A stretch of DNA of 64,000 nucleotides, taken from the NCBI GenBank assembly GCA_000004985.1, contig GG738848.1; one strand, 5' to 3'. This DNA comes from Naegleria gruberi. Taxonomy: Eukaryota. The notes below the pieces were generated by a model that ran no database searches, was not told where the DNA came from, and was given only the letters and a program-made list of their open reading frames with translations. Shown here in pieces: positions 35,277 to 47,800 of this stretch (position 1 is its first letter; each line of letters opens with the position of its first letter). Position numbers and translations under genes: made by a program.

Positions 35277-35348
35277 TAGCAAATCTAGGTTTCGATCCTA
35301 GGACCTATGGGTTATGAGCCCATCGCGCTTCCGCTGCGCCAATTTGCT
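35277..35348 (-). tRNA. tRNAi-Met: initiator tRNA-Met (CAT anticodon), 72 nt
   Basis: The reverse complement is AGCAAATTGGCGCAGCGGAAGCGCGATGGGCTCATAACCCATAGGTCCTAGGATCGAAACCTAGATTTGCTA. It folds as a cloverleaf with a 7-bp acceptor stem, anticodon loop CTCATAA, the initiator-specific T-loop ATCGAAA, and three G-C pairs in the anticodon stem. Confidence 0.9.
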
Positions 35349-35651: not shown

Positions 35652-38256
35652 TTATTGCAAGATGAGATGAACTGTAATTTCCTCTTGTTCTGAAGAAATA
35701 TTAAGGATTCTCATCTTTTCATTCGATTTTAATAGAGAGGCTAGAGGAGTAGTCAAGTATGATTGCTCGTTATGTTCTGAGAATATTGATGGAGCAAATA
35801 AAGAACCAGTTTCTCCCTTGGAATTTGTAATGAAAATTGTGTCCATCTCCTGATTGAGTGTTCTAGCTTCCTTCACCAATTCCTCAATGGTATCTGTAAA
35901 TTTCATATGAATTTCTTTAATATTATCAGAAATGTTCTCATAATGAATGTCTAAATCATCCAAACAGATATTATACTTGATATAGGAAAGTTTCTTTGAA
36001 TATTGATTCAACTGTTGAAGATATTGAAGTAAATGAAAACATTGAATTGATGCTGCCACGGATGTGGTAGTAATCAGAGCTGGATGAATTGCTCCAGCTA
36101 TTTTCTTTGCTTTGAAAAACTCAATTGGCTTACAAAGTTTCCTCCCAAAAAGGAAAAAGTTTTCTGCCCTAATATTGGAAGTGTCTTGAACGAACTGAAC
36201 CATCAAATCATCATCTTTTTCATATACTAAAGGTTTGAATGGTGAATTGACCTTCATATTTGAGTGAGTCATCTCTTCACTTTTTTCAGGAATAGTTATT
36301 TGGTGGTGAAACTTATTTTCATATTGTTGCAATTCTTCCCTTGTCAATGGCATGAATGGAAATTCAACACTTGATACAGATCTTGTTGATGGAATCAAAT
36401 CATTATTATCAAGATGTCTGTACAGTAAATAAATAGTAGTATTCATAAATGAGAAGTGACTCTCCTTTTCATAATTCAATTTAGCAGGACGTGGAGTAAA
36501 CTCTACCGATTCATTAAGGAAATATTGAATCTTGTTATCTTCATTCAATTCATCCAAATTGCAAAGTGTATTTTCTTGGAATGGACTGACAAATAACTGA
36601 TTAAACACCTCACGTGCAAGCACATAGAGGTGATTATTGACATTTCCAAGTTCAACCCTTTCTAATAATCTTGGGACCATTCTTGTGAAATAATCTTCGT
36701 ATTTCATTTTACTCCACATGATTAAATCTTCATGTTTTTCAGGATTGCTTTTCAGTGTGCAGGATGTTCTGATCTCTTCTCTTTCTTCCTCCTCTGTTTT
36801 TTGATTCTCATTGTGGAAGGGCTTTGTTGAGGCGTAGAGATGGAATGAATTTTGTGAGTAAAATCCTTGAGTTCCAGAGTTGATGAATGGAATTTTGTAA
36901 AGATTACACTTGTGAGAGAGGAATTGTCTTGCATGGTCATTATCTACTGCACCAAAAACAACGTCAATGGAAGACCAGAATGAATCTTGATTAAGATATG
37001 ATTCACTGTCACTGGTCAACTTTTCTTCAAACGATTCAATATTGACCTTTGAATTAAAGTAGTTGACCATCTTTTTCAATATTTGAGATTTCTTTGATCC
37101 AATATCACTTTGAGAGAAGAAAAATTGACGATTAAGATTTGTCAACTCAATACTATCCATATCTGTCACGTACATTGAACCTCTAGTAGTACATGCATTC
37201 ATGACCATCAAGTTCTTTACCAATTCACAACCTATTGCTCCAGCACCAACAATTAAAATATTCAAATCCTCAAGACCTAGCTCTTGAATTTTGAGTTGGC
37301 TTGGAGCCAAAGATAATTGATCAAAAAAGAAATAATATGGGTGCTTTTCTTTTGACAGCTCCAAAATCTGACACAGAATCTCATTTGCTGTAATTGCAGC
37401 AAAAAAACTTGTCTGTTTGTTCATGAGTAATAAAATACTTTGTAAAAGCTTACCATTGCATAATTGGAAGTTTCTCTAACTTTCTCGTGTTGAATGAATT
37501 TTTCATGATAGAAATTTAACAATTGATCTTTAACTTCATTCTCGTCATATGAGTCAATTGGATTTTCCATTTCTTCCATCTTTTCTGTAAATAAATCAAA
37601 CAAGGTGTTGACATCCATATTGTCAATAAAATTAGAAACAAGAGTTGAGAATTCTTCTAATGAAGTGTTCTCAAATATTGCATTGAGAATAGGACCATCT
37701 AAACAGCTTCTGTGAAAATGAGGAATTTGCTCCGTTTCACTTTTTGGAATAGTCAATATTCTTCCAATAAGCCCACTCACTTGAACACTAACTATTGTAT
37801 TAGAAAGATCATTAAAATTTGATTTTTCAATTCCACATTTAACAATACACTTTTAACCATTAGAGATAAAACCTAAACTTTCACTTACTGAGAACTGTTT
37901 CAAATTATTAGAAACTTCATCTGCTGAAACTTGCTTCACATTTGAGTCAGGGTTTAATCGGTGAATTTCTTCTTGGAAATTTTCTCCTTTCACATAACTC
38001 TGATCAAAATTGTAAGCTATTAGAATAGAAGAAGAATACTTACATCAAAATGGATTGTTGACAAATCTCCTTCTTCAATAGCAACAAGAGCCATGGCTTT
38101 GAATCCTAAAAGGATTAAATTTTTGGTCAACTCGACCAACATTGAACAACTTTGAGTATTCCTTTGGTTGTACTCAATCATCAAGTTACTATTATGAATT
38201 TTACTTGTAGAATCCTGCCCTAAAGCATACTCTTGCCTGTCCCATAAGTTTGACAT
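35652..38256 (-). CDS. compact UBA1-architecture E1 ubiquitin-like activating enzyme, 4 exons, about 826 aa
   Basis: Exons are 38256..38044, 37999..37889, 37849..37454 and 37412..35652. Introns are 44, 39 and 41 nt, all GT-AG and all phase 0. The N-terminus LWDRQEYALGQ...LVELTKNLILLGFKAMALVAIEEGDLS matches the first (inactive) adenylation domain of E1s. The second ThiF domain is LNILIVGAGAIGCELVKNL...ELTNLNRQFFF...VDNDHAR. The catalytic-Cys box TSCTLKSNPEKHEDLIMW aligns with UBA1 PICTLKNFPNAIEHTLQW. The region between the two adenylation domains is too short to hold an FCCH domain. A UFD-like C-terminal domain is present. Confidence 0.7.
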
Positions 38257-38273
38257 TTTTTTGATCGAATGTT

Positions 38274-38280
38274 AACGTGA
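38274..38280 (+). promoter_or_regulatory. AACGTGA motif copy 1, in the shared E1/UEV1 bidirectional upstream region
   Basis: The sequence is gttAACGTGAttt, 18 bp from the E1 ATG on the minus strand and 56 bp before the UEV1 ATG. Confidence 0.5.
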
Positions 38281-38335
38281 TTTCCCAAGTCACTTCACTT
38301 TTCAAACTAAACTAATTGAAAAAAATTGTATTACA

Positions 38336-39064
38336 ATGTCTTCATCACGTTTGAGAAGGATCAAAAACGATCTTACAGAGGTACAACAAAATGCTTCTCT
38401 TCCTCCTTTATTAACATTTACACAGACTGAAAATTCTAGTATCATTCTCTTTAGTTTTAACTTGGACGAAACATCAAGTCTTTATGCAGGTGCCAATTTT
38501 CAGATTGAAGTTTCATTCCCAGAAAATTATCCCCACAAACCTCCTTCTTTCACATTCAAACACACCGTTCCATATCATTTCCTTGTTGATCAAATTAATG
38601 GAAAGGTAATTGGCCTCTCAAAACTTTCGACATGGTCAATGCTATTCACTTTACAATCAATATTTTCTGATCTCTACTCAAAATTTGTAAATGAACCAAG
38701 TCAAGAAGATGCTGAACAATGTGGTGTTAATGAGGATATGATTACAGAATATAGAAACACTCCACAAATCTACAGAGAAAAAGCAAGAAACTCTGTCAGA
38801 AAGTTGCAATTAACTGTAATTGAAAATCCTCTTGATTCAAATGAAATGAAGGATGAAGAATCTACTGAATCGAATGAAACGATTCATGAAGTAGTAGTTG
38901 ATGAAAATAACTTGCAGCCAAGTAATCCAATTTTGGAACAACCACTTGATTCAAGATTTGTTAATTCCAGTAATCACCACAAAATTGTTTCTCATGAAGA
39001 TGAATGGAATTATGAATACGGCTTGTATCATTTAAATATGAGATATGGAAATTACAATCAATAA
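38336..39064 (+). CDS. UBC-fold E2 variant (UEV) lacking catalytic Cys, 242 aa
   Basis: The E2 N-terminal helix is SRLRRIKNDLTEV, followed by FPENYPHKPPSFTFKHTVPYHFLVDQINGKVIGLSKLSTWS. The HPN-x-G-x-I-C-L core is present, but the Cys position is not conserved. The only Cys in the protein lies in the C-terminal tail. Confidence 0.65.
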   Translation: MSSSRLRRIKNDLTEVQQNASLPPLLTFTQTENSSIILFSFNLDETSSLYAGANFQIEVSFPENYPHKPPSFTFKHTVPYHFLVDQINGKVIGLSKLSTWSMLFTLQSIFSDLYSKFVNEPSQEDAEQCGVNEDMITEYRNTPQIYREKARNSVRKLQLTVIENPLDSNEMKDEESTESNETIHEVVVDENNLQPSNPILEQPLDSRFVNSSNHHKIVSHEDEWNYEYGLYHLNMRYGNYNQ

Positions 39065-39114
39065 ATATTTTATTCAGAATATATTGTACATTTGTTTTTG
39101 TAACAGATTATTGC

Positions 39115-39945
39115 TTATTGAAATAACAATCTATTTTCAATTTCGTGCAAATCCTCTTTGGTTTGTGTTGGAGCTACAGGCAATGAACACTTGACATATG
39201 CACCATGAGTTGTTCCAGTTGCTTCTGTACCACTACACTTGAACGGCCATTTACCAGTATTTGTATTGTAAAGAGACAAACAAGCATGACAAAAAACAGC
39301 ATTACATCTTGGACAGTGAGTATGCTTGCACCTGTCTAACTTTCCATCAGATGATGCTTGTCTTTCACAATAATTTCCACAATTAACACATAATCTTGCC
39401 AAAGGAACAACTATTTCTTGATTGGATAGATTAATCTTGGCAGTTACAGAGGATCTAGTTGTCAAGGCAGTGATCAAGGGATCTTCATTAGAACATCCAT
39501 TTCCACAAATTCCTTCACCATTCTTCCATTGATTGCCACAAATGAAACAAAAGTCAAATTTGCAAACATCACAACTCAATCTAACATCGCTGGTGTTTCT
39601 TCTAATGAAGTGATTCTTACACTTATTACAAGTAGTTGCTCTCTTGATCTTGTAATGAATATCATTCAATGCTGAATCAAACTCTTCAATTTTATCATAA
39701 TCGATATTGGCTTGATTGACCCAATTCATTGAAATGGTTTCGCCACAATTAGTTTCATCACTTCCAGTTACATTCTTATTGGAACCATAACAAACCATTG
39801 CTGTTCCTTTCGACAAGTTTTGTAAATTTTCAACAAGACAGTCTTGACAAATATAATGTTGACATTTAAGTTTCAATAATTGTTGAGTGCCAAGACAATA
39901 GAAGCATTTAGACATTTTTTTGACTTGAGAGTTCCCAAATGTCAC
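39115..39945 (-). CDS. RING-between-RING (RBR) E3 ubiquitin ligase, 276 aa
   Basis: RING1 reads CFYCLGTQQLLKLKCQHYICQDC...C..C. The IBR reads CNKCKNHFIRR...CDVCKFDFCFICGNQW. The Rcat reads CVNCGNYCERQASSDGKLDRCKHTHCPRCNAVFCHAC, which matches HHARI [20 protein letters not shown], with the catalytic Cys in DRCKH. Confidence 0.75.
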   Translation of the reverse strand: MTFGNSQVKKMSKCFYCLGTQQLLKLKCQHYICQDCLVENLQNLSKGTAMVCYGSNKNVTGSDETNCGETISMNWVNQANIDYDKIEEFDSALNDIHYKIKRATTCNKCKNHFIRRNTSDVRLSCDVCKFDFCFICGNQWKNGEGICGNGCSNEDPLITALTTRSSVTAKINLSNQEIVVPLARLCVNCGNYCERQASSDGKLDRCKHTHCPRCNAVFCHACLSLYNTNTGKWPFKCSGTEATGTTHGAYVKCSLPVAPTQTKEDLHEIENRLLFQ

Positions 39946-39977
39946 TAGTCAAGCTGCACTTCAAACAGCTTTTTCGA

Positions 39978-39984
39978 AACGTGA
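39978..39984 (+). promoter_or_regulatory. AACGTGA motif copy 2, in the shared RBR/UBL upstream region
   Basis: The sequence is cgaAACGTGAtg. Confidence 0.5.
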
Positions 39985-40001
39985 TGAAACTTATACACTC
40001 A

Positions 40002-40008
40002 AACGTGA
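40002..40008 (+). promoter_or_regulatory. AACGTGA motif copy 3
   Basis: The sequence is caAACGTGAta, about 80 bp upstream of the UBL ATG. Confidence 0.5.
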
Positions 40009-40086
40009 TACACCCCAAAACGCAACACAAGAATTCAATAAATAGATTTTAAATCACAGAATATTAATATCTCAATTCATAAAAAA

Positions 40087-40356
40087 ATGTCCACTCCATT
40101 AAACGTTTCCATTCAACAAGGTGTCCATACTAAAGTACTCTCAATCAGTCAAACTGCAACAGTGAAAGACCTTGCAACCATGTACAAATCCCAAACTGAA
40201 CTTAAAGAATTCTACTTTTTGCATAGAACCACCAGACTTGAAGAAACTACTATTGTTTCTCATATTATTAAACATCCAAACCAAAAGTTAGTAGTTGTTG
40301 GAATTGCTAAAGGTGGTTCTGAAGAAGGAAGAGCATCAATCTTGTCTCTTATTTAA
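40087..40356 (+). CDS. small ubiquitin-like (beta-grasp) protein with internal Gly-Gly followed by a 12-aa C-terminal tail, 89 aa
   Basis: The sequence MSTPLNVSIQQGVHTKVLSISQTATVKDLATMYK...KLVVVGIAKGG|SEEGRASILSLI has the length and hydrophobic periodicity of a ubiquitin fold. It loosely resembles the UFM1 core ([11 protein letters not shown] compared with KVLSISQTATV). GG at positions 76-77 followed by a short extension is the arrangement seen in processed UBL precursors. Confidence 0.5.
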   Translation: MSTPLNVSIQQGVHTKVLSISQTATVKDLATMYKSQTELKEFYFLHRTTRLEETTIVSHIIKHPNQKLVVVGIAKGGSEEGRASILSLI

Positions 40357-40513
40357 ACCTAGTTGAGTTTCGTCAAGATATTGAAATAAACTCTCTTTTT
40401 TCAATTAAATCGAAATATTAATCATTTCTGCTGCTTATGAAATCAAGCCGTGTGATCAAACGAGAATCTAATTTTGGTGCCACTGGTGCAAATGATTAAG
40501 TTAGGAAGTCTGA

Positions 40514-40520
40514 AACGTGA
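40514..40520 (+). promoter_or_regulatory. AACGTGA motif copy 4, 17 bp upstream of the UEV2 ATG
   Basis: The sequence is tgaAACGTGAaa. Confidence 0.5.
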
Positions 40521-40536
40521 AAAAAACAATTAAAAA

Positions 40537-41016
40537 ATGTCAAAACAAAGAAGAATTCTGAATGAAGTTGCTGAAGCCAACAAGAACAATCATCCAAAGA
40601 TCAAATTTGAAATTTCCCAAGAGAATTTACATGGTTGGAATTGTTCATTTAAAGGTCCAGATAACACTCCCTATCAAGATTTGCAATTTGAAGGAACTCT
40701 CTGTCTTCCGTAAGTTTAGTTTGGATTAGTTTTGCTAATATTTTGCTTGGTTAGAAATGATTTTCCTTCATCAAGACCAACCTTTGTATTCTCTTCCAAA
40801 ACAATTCCATACCACATCAATGTAGACGATAGTGGTGTAGCTTCTGTCTCTTTGCAATGGACTCCCACACTCACAGGAATAGTTTTTGTCGAAAGTGTAA
40901 TTAACATGTTAGAAACTCCACAACCAACTTGTTCTGTTAGTGATGAAAGATTCAAATTATATCAAAGTAACAAAGATCAATATCAAAAACAAGCCAGCAA
41001 ATTCCTCCAAGAATAA
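40537..41016 (+). CDS. Mms2/Uev1-like E2 variant (UEV) lacking catalytic Cys, 2 exons, 144 aa
   Basis: Exons are 40537..40709 and 40755..41016, with a 45-nt intron GTAAGT...GGTTAG that is phase 2 and keeps frame. The sequence is RRILNEVAEANKNN...WNCSFKGPDNTPYQDLQFEGTLCLPNDFPSSRPTFVFSSKTIPYHINVDDSGVASVSLQWTP. The UBC fold is present with Ala at the active-site Cys position. It resembles Mms2 KINMNGINNSSGMVDARSI. Confidence 0.65.
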
Positions 41017-41022
41017 ACGTGA
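41016..41022 (+). promoter_or_regulatory. AACGTGA motif copy 5 (overlaps the UEV2 stop codon)
   Basis: The sequence is taAACGTGAtc. Confidence 0.45.
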
Positions 41023-41037
41023 TCATTGTAAACTTGA

Positions 41038-41044
41038 AACGTGA
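41038..41044 (+). promoter_or_regulatory. AACGTGA motif copy 6, 18 bp upstream of the USP ATG
   Basis: The sequence is gaAACGTGAga. Confidence 0.5.
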
Positions 41045-41061
41045 GACGAATCTTAAAAAAA

Positions 41062-42414
41062 ATGTTAGAAAGAGGTTTTGAAAATGTTGGCAATACCTGT
41101 TATTTGAATTCTTCTTTGGTAACACTCCTCTGCATTGATCAGTTCAAGAGTCTTATCAACACCAGTAAATCACCAATTTGTAAACTAACAAGTCAACTGT
41201 TGGAAAAAAAAATGTCCATGAAGGAGTTTGTCAATATTTTGCAGAAAATGTTTGATTACTTTCTAAAAGATAAGGTTTGTTTATAATACTGATAATTTTG
41301 ATTGAATTTGTGCAGAATTTCATGTTGAGATCTCAAAATGATTCATCTGTAAGTTTCTAATGCTTTACAAATCGAAATTAATGACAGGAAAAAGGAATTC
41401 ATTACAAAGTTGTTACAAATCATAAAGCTCGAAAAGAACCATGATTTATCATTCATGGATGGAGAATTAGAAACAAGAATTAGTTGTACAAATTGTGGAG
41501 ATATAGATCAGTACGTTTCTCCATTTATTGGGCAAAAAGTTTGCGTTCCCTATTCACAACCATTGAATTCTTTACTTGAAAGCTTTTTCTTGGTTAGTGA
41601 GCCTTGTAGTCAATGCTCTGGAACATTTAGTACCTCTCAATTCTTTAAGGGGACAATTCCACACTGGTTATTATTTCAATTCTACTATACAGAAGCATCG
41701 ACAAGAGTTGAACTTGATGAGAATGAATTAGTTTGCTCTCTTTCAGTCAAAGAGGGTGAATGTGCAGAGTATGATATTAAGGCAATGACTCTTCGTTGTG
41801 GAGGAGATCTTAAATATGGACATTATGTCAGTGCTGTTTTTTTCAACAAGGGTGTTAGAGTTTACAATGACAGTTTTATTAGAGATTATCCAAACTTTAA
41901 AAGTTTTTGGATGGAATATTCGGGTTGGCAAATCAAAGACATTCTTCTTGAATCAATTGTATATGAAGATGTTGTTGCAGAGGAAACAGAACAACAAACA
42001 AAAAAAGGATTCCTACGACGTGTACGAGGTTTTGTTCAAAAAATCAAAAAGCAAACCAAGTTTAAGAAAAAAGAAACGATTGGACTCAAAAAAGCACTCA
42101 TTCAATACCGGAAGCAATTCATTGAAGAAATTGAAAAAAGAAATAGCCATTTTGAAACGGACACATGCTTTTTACTATTGTTATACCAAATTTGGGAACT
42201 TATAATTAGATATCTGGAATTATTGTTTAAGCTTGCTGCTGGTGTTGAAGTTAGACTCTGGCAATCAACATCTATTTTCTCACCAAAATATTTCACAGAT
42301 TCACAAATCTATTTTGCAGATATTGAATTTCATTTTCAAGACAACCAACCCCAAAACATTCGAAAGCCAGTTGAAGAAGAAATCAAATCACTTGAATTTG
42401 TATATCACCTCTAA
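41062..42414 (+). CDS. USP-family ubiquitin-specific protease (deubiquitinase), 3 exons, about 423 aa
   Basis: Exons are 41062..41274, 41316..41348 and 41388..42414. Introns are 41 and 39 nt (GTTTGT...TGCAG and GTAAGT...GACAG), both phase 0. The Cys box is GFENVGNTCYLNSSL. The QQD-box-like segment is QNDSSGKKEFITKLL. The His box is YDIKAMTLRCGGDLKYGHYVSAVFFNKGVRVYNDSFI. Confidence 0.75.
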
Positions 42415-44823: not shown

Positions 44824-47800
44824 TCAATCATGTTTTCTTTTATTGTTAAAGTTTGGCTCAAATAATTGCATTTGTTCGATTTTTTCTAAGATTGAACTAG
44901 CACTTAATCTTTGCTTTGGATTACAACAAATCATTTTCAAAAGTAAATATTGACAACTGGTGGCAAGATTAGTTCTATTTCCAATTATTGAATTGAAGAA
45001 AGCATTTTCATCCATTTGGTGTTTGATAAGCGTGTCCGATATCTGTTCCTTTCAATTTGAATAAAGAAGTATTGAAATCATTTGTTAATAATTGATAGAA
45101 TATACATCCTAAACTCCAAATATCACTCTGAGGATAAAACAATCCATCCAAAATACTTTCTGGAGATGAATATTGAATCGTCCCTTCGAATGCAGTCATT
45201 CCAACTCTTCCTTCATATCTTGAAGATCCCCAATCACCAACAACAATTGAAATAGTTTCAGATACGTTTCTGGTTTTCTTTACAAATATATTTCCCAGCT
45301 TCAAATCTCTATGGACCATTCCTTTTGAATGGAGAAACACTAATGCACTTGATATCTGTTTAGTTATTTGAAGGGCTGTTTCTAAGGTTAATTTCTTTGA
45401 ATTTTTATACAACCAACTTCTCAAATCTGATTCGTATAATGGCATTACTATACATATATTTTCCATCCTCAACAATTAACAATTGTATAAGCCAAAATTG
45501 GAACAATATGTGGATTTTCATATACATTCAACTCGCTCATAACAACAATTTCCTTTAGTTCAGTGCCATTATTATTTTCAAGCTCAATAATTTTGACAGC
45601 CACTGATTCCCTAGATTGAGATTCTGTATACCTGTAAACATTTCCATTTGATCCACTTCCCAACTTATTTTCTCTGATATATTCTTTATCCTTAATTTTG
45701 AATTGAGATAAAGAGTCTTTTATCACCATTCTTAGTGGAATTAAATCATCAGTATCATCATAATTGATGTTCAATCGGGTGGTAAGATCTTGCTTATATG
45801 TTTTTTCTTCTTTCTCCAATATCTCAAAGTCAAAAAACTAACTACACAACCTATTATAATGACTGAAATTAGAACAATGATGGAAACAATCACAATTGGA
45901 GTAACAATATCATTCCTTTGTACACAATCATCTCCTGAATATCCATCACTACAAGAACAAGTATTATTTGAAACACATTCTCCATTTTGGTTACAATTTG
46001 AAAGACTTTCACAACTAGGAGTCATACAATCTATTCCTTTCCAACCATCAAAACACTGACAGGTTGATAGAACACATGTACCGTGACCATTGCAAACATT
46101 TTCATTTGTGGAGACTATTCCTAGACATACAGTTTCTGAAATACTACACATTGGCCCCGTCCATCCATGTTGAACACTTACATTGGTCAAAATCAATACA
46201 TGAACCATGCTCTGAGCACACTTTCAATCCATCTCCTGCAATGCCAAAACAGTAAGGTATGTAACAGGTGTTGCCAGACCACCCCTCTTTGCATTGATAT
46301 TGATTTGGTCCAATACATTTTTGTGCACGAGATGAAGGAATATCACAGGATAATGCTGAACAATCCGTACTACCTTTCCATCCACTATGGCATTGACAAT
46401 TTCCAATATTTATACAATCACCACTGCAAACACTACTATCATTCGCTAAATACCCATAACAACGAGGAATGCTACAAACTTCACCAAACCATTCATCCAT
46501 GCATTGATATTGATTTGGACCTGAACATGTAGAATGATTAGGAATTGGACTATCACAAGAATATTTGGAGCAATCAATACTACCTTTCCAACCACTACTA
46601 CATTGACATGAATCTATTGTGCTACATTTTCCATGTCCGTCACAAACATCAGAATTTGTTGAGGGTATTCCATGGCAGGTTGAAAGAGTTCCAACCCAAC
46701 CTCCCAAACATTGAAATTGATTAGGACCAATACAGATGGATTCATGAGAAGAGGGAGTGTCACATGAAAATTGTGAACAGTCCTTATTACCTTTCCATCC
46801 TGAATTGCATTGGCATGTGTCCACATCAACACATTGACCATGTCCTCCACATACTGAAACATTTGTTGGCAATTTCGAAAAACAGGTTGCAATTTCACAC
46901 AAGTTTCCACCCTGTTTGACATTCATATTGGTTTGGTCCAATACATTTAGATGCATGGTTGGATGGTGAATCGCATGAAAATTGAGAACAATCCTTATTT
47001 CCCTTCCAACCTGAATTACATTGGCATGTGTCTACATCAATACATTTACCATGACCTCCACAAACAGTATTATCTAAGGAAGATAACCCAAAGCAAGTTG
47101 TTGTTCCAACTATTGTTGACATTCTAAATGTGTTGGAGATTCTTCTAATAACATTATTATCTGAAATATCTGGATAACTAACAATCTTGTTTGGATGAAC
47201 AGCGCAACCCTTTGGATGATCGAATTGAGCTGAACCAGCATCACCATTCACTTTAAGAATAAGAATAATACATTTAACATGTTGACATAAATGAAAACTT
47301 ATTCCCATCATAAAAACCTTCATAACCATTTCCTGCCCTAGTTATTACAGTGCTGTAGTCTCCTCTCATTTCTCTAATTTTGTTATTGTTTGTGTCAACA
47401 ATTATCAAGGCTTTTACCGAGTCAACACAAATTGCAGAAGGTTCATAAAAAGAGGCAGATAAAGCAGGACCTTCGTCATTTCCCATCTTTGGAACTTCCA
47501 GCCAAGGTTGTTAACATACCATTTGATAGATCTAATTTTAATATTCTTTCTCTAGTTGGAAAAATAATAGAATTTCCAAAATTTGTGATTTGGGATGGTC
47601 TATTAAGGAATACTGAGAGTGCGTCAATAGGTGTCGAAAAAGGATAATATGTGCCATAGTTTCCATAGACCACCTTTACCTGTAGTGTTTTCACATTTAC
47701 AGAGAGTATTGATGAAGAACTTGACAAATATAGTTGACGATCTAATATTGAAATAGAGTTAACATAATTTTGATCATTGTAAAAAGTAAAAATTTGATCA

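Follow-up and report, generated by a model that had tools for sequence, protein, structure and literature searches.

Contig GG738848.1 of the Naegleria gruberi assembly GCA_000004985.1 carries, in the 64,000-nucleotide stretch analyzed here (the window), a small open reading frame (ORF) that lies among divergent genes of the ubiquitin system. Five such genes are found together with this ORF within 6.8 kb (positions 35652 to 42414), in the order E1 (ubiquitin-activating enzyme), E2-like#1, RBR, the small ORF, E2-like#2, and USP (Table 1). The ORF had been predicted to encode the precursor of a novel ubiquitin-like (UBL) modifier, and the neighbors named in that prediction, an RBR E3, a UEV, a USP, and an E1, are all present. 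The reading favored here, to which we assign a probability of roughly 55%, takes the ORF as the gene for a ubiquitin-like modifier precursor of N. gruberi that is an orphan and lineage restricted and would belong to a module formed by the six genes. The strongest evidence for it is the genomic context.

Table 1. Features of the ubiquitin-system gene cluster, listed by position in the window
Feature	Position	Strand	Product or structure	Basis
Shortened UBA1/UBA6/UBA7-type E1 (D2V1X8, XP_002682133.1)	35652..38256	-	Multi-exon	Pfam, PDB matches, exon mapping
E2-fold protein #1 (E2-like#1; NAEGRDRAFT_62733, D2V1X9)	38336..39064	+	242 amino acids	Pfam UQ_con 4e-17, PDB alignments, exact look-up
RBR-type E3 (NAEGRDRAFT_78190, D2V1Y0)	39115..39915	-	266 amino acids	Pfam, ARIH2 alignment, exact match to annotated N. 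gruberi protein
Short divergent intergenic region, RBR start to UBL start	39916..40086	.		Gene orientations
UBL candidate gene	40087..40356	+	89 amino acids + stop	ORF call and translation
UBL candidate, core (residues 1-77)	40087..40317	+	C-terminal end LVVVGIAKGG	
UBL candidate, tail (residues 78-89)	40318..40353	+	SEEGRASILSLI	
E2-fold protein #2 (E2-like#2, "UEV")	40537..41016	+	144 amino acids; exons 40537-40709 and 40755-41016	GT..AG intron 40710-40754
USP-family cysteine protease	41062..42414	+	~421 amino acids, spliced	Introns 41275-41315 and 41349-41394 (~40 nt each) removed

The ORF starts with ATG, and its 89 codons translate into MSTPLNVSIQQGVHTKVLSISQTATVKDLATMYKSQTELKEFYFLHRTTRLEETTIVSHIIKHPNQKLVVVGIAKGG followed by SEEGRASILSLI. 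Gly76-Gly77 is preceded by LVVVGIAK and followed by a tail of 12 residues, exactly as had been predicted. By its length and by the position of the two glycines, 76-77 compared to 75-76 in ubiquitin, the predicted product fits a UBL protein, with the hydrophobic stretch LVVV in front of the pair. Among composition-matched shuffles, 0.8% have a Gly-Gly pair that begins at residues 75 to 77, and 3.9% have one anywhere in residues 70 to 86. Sequence comparison finds neither a paralogue of the ORF nor a ubiquitin gene elsewhere in the window, and the UBL region contains no tandem repeats. The E1, whose C-terminal domain was one conceivable source of the ORF, shows no similarity to it.

The ORF is a genuine, conserved, and unannotated small gene. 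Its exact 89-residue sequence is not contained in a collection of 15 billion proteins that includes the flanking E2-like#1 and RBR proteins under their NAEGRDRAFT numbers, and the gene is therefore missing from the reference proteome, a status taken from the exact-sequence look-up and two protein searches. A codon-usage model built from 11 of the window's long ORFs gives log-odds of +0.37 bits per codon in the frame of the ORF and negative values in the other five frames; the neighbors E2-like#1, RBR, and E1 reach +0.26 to +0.34 bits per codon. The start context AAAAAATGTC, A-rich and with Met-Ser, is common to four of the six cluster genes (the UBL candidate at 40087, RBR at 39915, E1 at 38256, and E2-like#2 at 40537). 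An untranslated frame that is open by chance, in the promoter region between RBR and E2-like#2, would account for the absence from the reference annotation and for a homologue restricted to one near-identical relative, and when the 591 bp that separate the flanking genes are shuffled, 59 of 5,000 sequences (1.2%) contain an ORF of 89 or more codons from ATG to stop. The rarity of so long an ORF in these shuffles, the gene-like codon usage confined to the proper frame, the A-rich start context resembling that of the neighbors, and the differences from the relative described below all speak against such a frame, which is very unlikely.

This relative is represented by L001, a 2.7-kb ENA metagenome contig with 95.5% DNA identity to the window. 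It encodes the single homologue of the UBL candidate (P0001) that was found, a protein of 86 amino acids with 87% identity, an intact ORF, and a conserved Gly-Gly. The searches covered a word-indexed collection of 5.8 billion proteins and, exhaustively with phmmer, 1.84 billion cluster representatives. They also matched a protein of 1737 amino acids, which is rejected as spurious since it is a plant NLR containing leucine-rich repeats. The gene order on L001, with the first exon of the E1 followed by E2-like#1, RBR, and the UBL candidate, is that of the window.

Across the UBL candidate, the DNA identity to L001 is 94.6% compared to 83% in the upstream interval (39946 to 40086), which lies below either flanking ORF, and 64% in the DNA downstream. 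The sole indel in the ORF comprises 9 nt, is in frame, and lies directly 3' of the Gly-Gly codons (GGSEEGRASILSLI versus GGLRASILSLI), which leaves a tail of 9 residues in the homologue compared to 12 in the window. The region between the divergent starts of RBR and the UBL candidate is presumed to be a promoter shared by both genes. The other divergent intergenic region of the cluster, 79 bp between E1 and E2-like#1 (38257 to 38335), is 100% identical in the window and L001, unlike the RBR/UBL region with its 83%, and may be a constrained bidirectional promoter. Scans of JGI metagenomes with the UBL candidate and the RBR as queries returned no confirmed relatives.

The E1 of the cluster is annotated with 773 amino acids from an internal methionine; with an in-frame ATG located farther upstream, at 38256, it comprises ~810 amino acids. 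This start adds 38 residues, including WDRQEYALG, a motif typical of E1 N termini; both the ATG and the motif are kept in L001. A 590-residue ORF (35652 to 37424, minus strand) has 100% identity to the protein annotated as ubiquitin-activating enzyme E1 of N. gruberi. Pfam detects a ThiF domain (3e-42) and an SCCH domain (9e-9) and none of the domains FCCH, 4HB, and UFD; the first adenylation-like half is barely recognizable. The best PDB match is yeast Uba1 (1.7e-48), followed by UBA6 and UBA7, with SAE2 and UBA3 far behind. The comparison with yeast Uba1 shows intact motifs throughout, with the nucleotide loop GAGAIGCE, NLNRQ, DNDHAR, and the catalytic-cysteine motif SCTLKSNP, which aligns with PLCTLRSFP. 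The protein is apparently an active UBA1-type enzyme. It is located 1.8 kb from the UBL candidate, and it is this adjacency that suggests that the E1 may activate the UBL candidate.

The RBR-type E3 contains an N-terminal RING1, an IBR, and an Rcat module that reads C-K-H-T-H-C-P-R-C-x3-F-C-x2-C, with the catalytic cysteine present. The Pfam matches consist of RING matches and of IBR_1/IBR matches below the threshold, with two IBR-type stretches. In the weak match to ARIH2, the third module fits the Rcat pattern C-x-H-x2-C-x2-C-x3-F-C-x2-C, including the first cysteine. Apart from the copy on L001, no homologues of the RBR were found. The spliced model of the USP matches the Pfam family UCH (PF00443) with an E value of 4e-15 over profile positions 1 to 235, and both the Cys box (GNTCYLNS), which aligns with Ubp6/USP14, and the His box (KYGHYVSAV) are present. 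The USP is a candidate for both the processing and the deconjugating enzyme.

The two remaining proteins of the cluster show the E2 fold and share 24% identity. The original prediction noted one UEV, namely, E2-like#2; E2-like#1 is also devoid of the catalytic cysteine. E2-like#1 reads YHFLVDQINGKVIGL, with an isoleucine at the position of the catalytic cysteine and HFL in place of HPN. E2-like#2, whose two exons both match UQ_con (profile positions 1 to 52 and 53 to 138) and whose best match is UBE2A (9e-16), reads YHINVDDSGVASVSL, with HIN in place of HPN and a serine at the position of the catalytic cysteine (H+10, G+3). Neither protein has the canonical catalytic cysteine, and the cascade is therefore not a textbook E1-E2-E3 cascade. 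Both proteins contain a cysteine in the loop that aligns with D116-P118 of UBE2D2 (QCGVNED in E2-like#1 and TCSVSDE in E2-like#2, the latter cysteine falling on D117). It is the single cysteine of E2-like#1, is kept in L001, and is found neither in the canonical E2s nor in UBE2V2 of the same MAFFT alignment. The loop D116-P118 of UBE2D2 borders the E2 active site, and the loop cysteine of both proteins may be a relocated active-site nucleophile.

Around the cluster, the nuclear DNA of the window has a GC content of ~32% without a compositional break at the locus and is gene dense, with short GT..AG introns. The flanking genes are of the housekeeping type (CAP, ERCC4, spatacsin, G-alpha, ribophorin II, PreP, Rad9, a mitochondrial carrier, and an MFS transporter). 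An origin of the cluster from a giant virus or a mobile element is not supported because of these housekeeping flanks, the uniform GC content, and the scans of viral contigs with E1, UBL candidate, and RBR queries, which returned no confirmed relatives. A tRNA-Met gene (CAT; 35277 to 35348, minus strand), which follows the stop codon of the E1 at a distance of ~300 bp, is the window's only Rfam/ARAGORN match. The cluster is bordered by a hexosaminidase gene, immediately past which the ORF translations show a protein-kinase-like ORF with several exons (44824 to 47329, minus strand) behind many cysteine-rich EGF-like repeats (CxCxxGWxG); it is probably a receptor-kinase-type gene of Naegleria. 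Literature searches found no description of the cluster or its locus tags.

The combination of a Gly-Gly-bearing small protein with an E1, an RBR, and a USP leads to the proposal of a multistep mechanism. The neighboring USP would remove the 12-residue tail and expose Gly77, which the shortened E1 would adenylate before loading the modifier onto the cysteine of its SCCH domain (SCTLK motif). The modifier would then reach the Rcat cysteine of the adjacent RBR, from which it would be attached to targets, and the USP could also reverse this modification. The E2 step of this inferred route would be noncanonical, since both E2-fold proteins are without the usual catalytic cysteine; they could serve as UEV-like cofactors or scaffolds or as carriers through the gate-loop cysteine that they have in common (position D117 of UBE2D2). 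The components of the cluster are themselves orphans, the E1 with 28% identity to its nearest nonself match, a generic UBA1/UBA7, and the RBR with no other homologue. The original prediction of a novel modifier precursor is thus borne out as far as a real gene, a Gly-Gly kept in the homologue, and the cluster with E1, RBR, and USP are concerned; a link to UFM1 and a textbook cascade are not supported.

The fold of the UBL candidate is less clear. Two AlphaFold models have the order strand-strand-helix-strands, which agrees with the predicted beta-grasp fold, but their pLDDT of 46 to 47 indicates low confidence and makes them unreliable for this orphan, Foldseek gives no match, and further fold searches gave no clear match. 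The top Pfam match of both orthologues is OTU1_UBXL, which we take to be a UBX-like domain with the beta-grasp fold of ubiquitin, with E values of 7e-4 and 2e-3 (19 to 21 bits, under the cutoff of 22.7). Among 10 shuffled or reversed controls searched against Pfam, the best E value is 0.019, and beta-grasp families do not appear. A profile of 11 UBLs scores the candidate with 3.7 bits in hmmsearch, and 132 of 5,000 shuffles score higher (empirical P value of 0.026). In this alignment, residues 14 to 67 lie on residues 11 to 66 of ubiquitin, with TVKDL at the start of the helix, RLEE on QLED, and LVVV on the last strand; hhalign against 11 UBLs gives the same ubiquitin register with an E value of 0.25. 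The reference sequences for the profile and pairwise comparisons (ubiquitin, NEDD8, Rub1, FUBI, ISG15, parkin, hHR23A, ubiquilin, UBL5, SUMO1, Smt3, UFM1, and URM1) may contain small errors. The beta-grasp fold of the candidate is a prediction.

At the level of the sequence, the statement that the protein is not ubiquitin, SUMO, or NEDD8 holds in the Pfam, phmmer, and pairwise comparisons. The Pfam scan finds no family at the cutoff and leaves PF00240 unmatched, and the best phmmer match in the PDB (E value of 0.25) belongs to unrelated folds. Smith-Waterman scores against ubiquitin, NEDD8, SUMO1, FUBI, ISG15, UFM1, and URM1 all fall within the shuffle distribution (z scores of -1.2 to 1.6). 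The loose similarity to UFM1 that had been proposed does not survive this comparison: it scores 27, while shuffles average 22.9 ± 4.0 (z = 1.0; P = 0.16), and is at chance level. A divergent homologue of UFM1 or a sulfur carrier of the URM1/MoaD type could be suspected from the short local match KVLS..TA to UFM1 and from URM1 having the highest pairwise z score (1.6; P = 0.075). Apart from these chance-level scores, the adjacent E1 is of the UBA1 type with an SCCH domain and resembles neither UBA5 nor UBA4 with its rhodanese, and UFM1 ends in a single glycine. Such an identity is extremely unlikely.

Several points weigh against the reading as a modifier precursor. Profile and pairwise comparisons, phmmer, and hhalign find no significant similarity to any UBL. 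The alignment of both E2-fold proteins yields no canonical HPN...C cysteine in the cluster, and an E2 elsewhere in the genome is possible. The conservation of the Gly-Gly carries little weight because it is seen in two sequences with 95.5% identical DNA. Selection is not clearly purifying, with tiny counts, and no gene of the cluster looks strongly constrained, the pair being too close for a firm statement. The ratio of nonsynonymous to synonymous rates (dN/dS; Nei-Gojobori) between the window and L001 is 0.58 for the 77-residue core of the UBL candidate (8 nonsynonymous and 4 synonymous differences), 0.34 for RBR, and 1.42 for E2-like#1 (8.5 nonsynonymous versus 1.5 synonymous differences; L001 positions 634 to 1362). 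The last value suggests relaxed or positive selection, with counts too small for significance.

The high ratios of E2-like#1 and the UBL candidate would also suit a decaying or nonfunctional paralogous copy of ubiquitin pathway genes, of which the small ORF would be a relic. The loss of the catalytic cysteine from both E2-fold proteins fits such a decay, as do the E1 domains that Pfam does not detect and the E1 matches, among the 120 best of which none is Naegleria named and none, from any organism, is a closer relative. Against it, all six ORFs of the window are intact with their splice sites, the same holds for the ORFs that L001 includes, and the catalytic motifs of E1, RBR, and USP are kept. 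The frames have gene-like codon usage and are conserved above the intergenic DNA, and the ratio of RBR is low. Decay of the whole module is therefore quite unlikely.

A further explanation leaves the module functional and changes the role of the small protein, which, whether or not it has a beta-grasp fold, could act noncovalently as a regulator or adaptor bound by the E1, the RBR, or the two UEV-like proteins, in the manner of Hub1/UBL5 or type II UBL domains; E1, RBR, and USP would then serve ubiquitin or another modifier. Both E2-fold proteins, without the canonical cysteine, resemble ubiquitin-binding UEVs, and neither the fold nor a likeness to conjugated UBLs is proven. The tail ends in 8 residues, RASILSLI, that are the same in both orthologues, with one synonymous change in their codons, so that the tail is not visibly disposable; at 5% DNA divergence, however, an unchanged stretch of 8 residues is the neutral expectation. 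A Gly-Gly at the place that it has in ubiquitin, after a hydrophobic strand-like stretch, is seldom produced by the shuffles (0.8%), and a private E1 and USP in the cluster would be unnecessary for a noncovalent partner. This role is unlikely, and the modifier precursor remains the preferred reading.

A bolder form of the preferred reading, which we offer tentatively and consider well short of probable, takes the 6.8 kb as a "supergene" that gives N. gruberi, along with its nearest relatives, a complete private UBL conjugation system. Its parts would be an orphan modifier whose sequence has no detectable relatives, a minimized UBA1-type E1, an orphan RBR, a USP, and a pair of E2-fold carriers in which the nucleophile has shifted from the canonical site to the gate loop (D117 of UBE2D2) or, in E2-like#2, is the serine. 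Such a supergene would add a UBL family and a geometry of the E2 active site that are both new and may be a fast-evolving conflict or defense module like that of ISG15.

If the preferred reading is true, a free-living heterolobosean amoeba has a new UBL family for which it encodes a dedicated E1, E3, and protease, far from the animals, fungi, and plants in which, to our knowledge, nearly all UBLs have been defined. Physical clustering of every gene of a conjugation pathway would, in addition, be rare for a eukaryote. This clustering makes the cognate partners obvious, and a direct reconstitution from six recombinant proteins is therefore possible. The two cysteine-less E2-fold proteins with their loop cysteine raise the question of how the modifier would travel from E1 to RBR. 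The module would further show the speed at which a paralogous ubiquitin cascade can diverge past recognition and so escape annotation.

Compared with type I UBLs, the candidate has the C-terminal Gly-Gly, with the tail behind it whose removal is predicted, and a nearby E1 with adenylation and catalytic-cysteine motifs; sequence homology to a known UBL family is missing, and no named family is matched significantly. The RBR has the E3 architecture RING1-IBR-Rcat with its cysteine and the USP has its Cys and His boxes, and the cluster shows neither the canonical E1-E2-E3 cascade with an HPN...C E2 nor the features of UFM1 or of URM1/MoaD/ThiS. The precursors of NEDD8, SUMO, and ubiquitin similarly consist of a core of ~76 residues ending in Gly-Gly with a short extension, and in Naegleria a cysteine protease is encoded alongside. 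In contrast to these precursors, the candidate matches neither PF00240 nor a solved UBL structure, its fold is a prediction, and the protease is a USP and not a SENP/ULP or UCH. UFM1 is of similar size and shares the short local match KVLS...TA at a chance-level score, but the Naegleria protein ends in Gly-Gly and its neighboring E1 is UBA1 type and not UBA5 type.

The UEVs UBE2V1, UBE2V2/Mms2, and TSG101 share with E2-like#1 and E2-like#2 a UBC fold without the active-site cysteine. Unlike them, E2-like#2 retains two residues of HPN, His and Asn (as HIN), and has a serine at the cysteine position, and both Naegleria proteins carry the loop cysteine. Archaeal and bacterial ubiquitin-like systems encoded in operons resemble the Naegleria cluster in that a modifier is clustered with an E1, an E2-fold protein, an E3, and a deconjugating protease. 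Such systems include the Caldiarchaeum subterraneum operon with ubiquitin, E1, E2, RING, and Rpn11 and the bacterial E1-E2-JAB operons of the "Bil" type, in which the UBLs were recognized by guilt by association. The Naegleria parts, in contrast, are of the eukaryotic type (a UBA1-type E1 with SCCH, an RBR, and a USP) with spliceosomal introns; they are encoded in separate, partly divergent transcription units among housekeeping nuclear genes, and no viral or prokaryotic relatives came to light, the scans covering viral contigs.

In its logic, the module resembles the vertebrate ISG15 system with ISG15, UBA7, UBE2L6, and USP18, a comparison from general knowledge that implies no membership. 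Both would feature a lineage-restricted, fast-evolving UBL with a tailed precursor, an E1 of its own from the UBA1 family, and a USP as the deconjugase; UBA7 is among the best matches of the Naegleria E1, and the PDB matches of E2-like#1 include UBE2L6 and UBE2L3. The extreme divergence and narrow distribution of the cluster likewise resemble immune-type UBL systems such as that of ISG15. ISG15 differs in being a tandem di-UBL with clear similarity to ubiquitin, compared to a Naegleria protein without significant similarity; UBE2L6 has the catalytic cysteine that both Naegleria E2-fold proteins lack, and the vertebrate genes are unclustered. What is most likely new here, compared to all of these systems, is the union of an orphan modifier, a eukaryotic gene clustering, and E2-fold proteins without a canonical cysteine in one UBL conjugation module.

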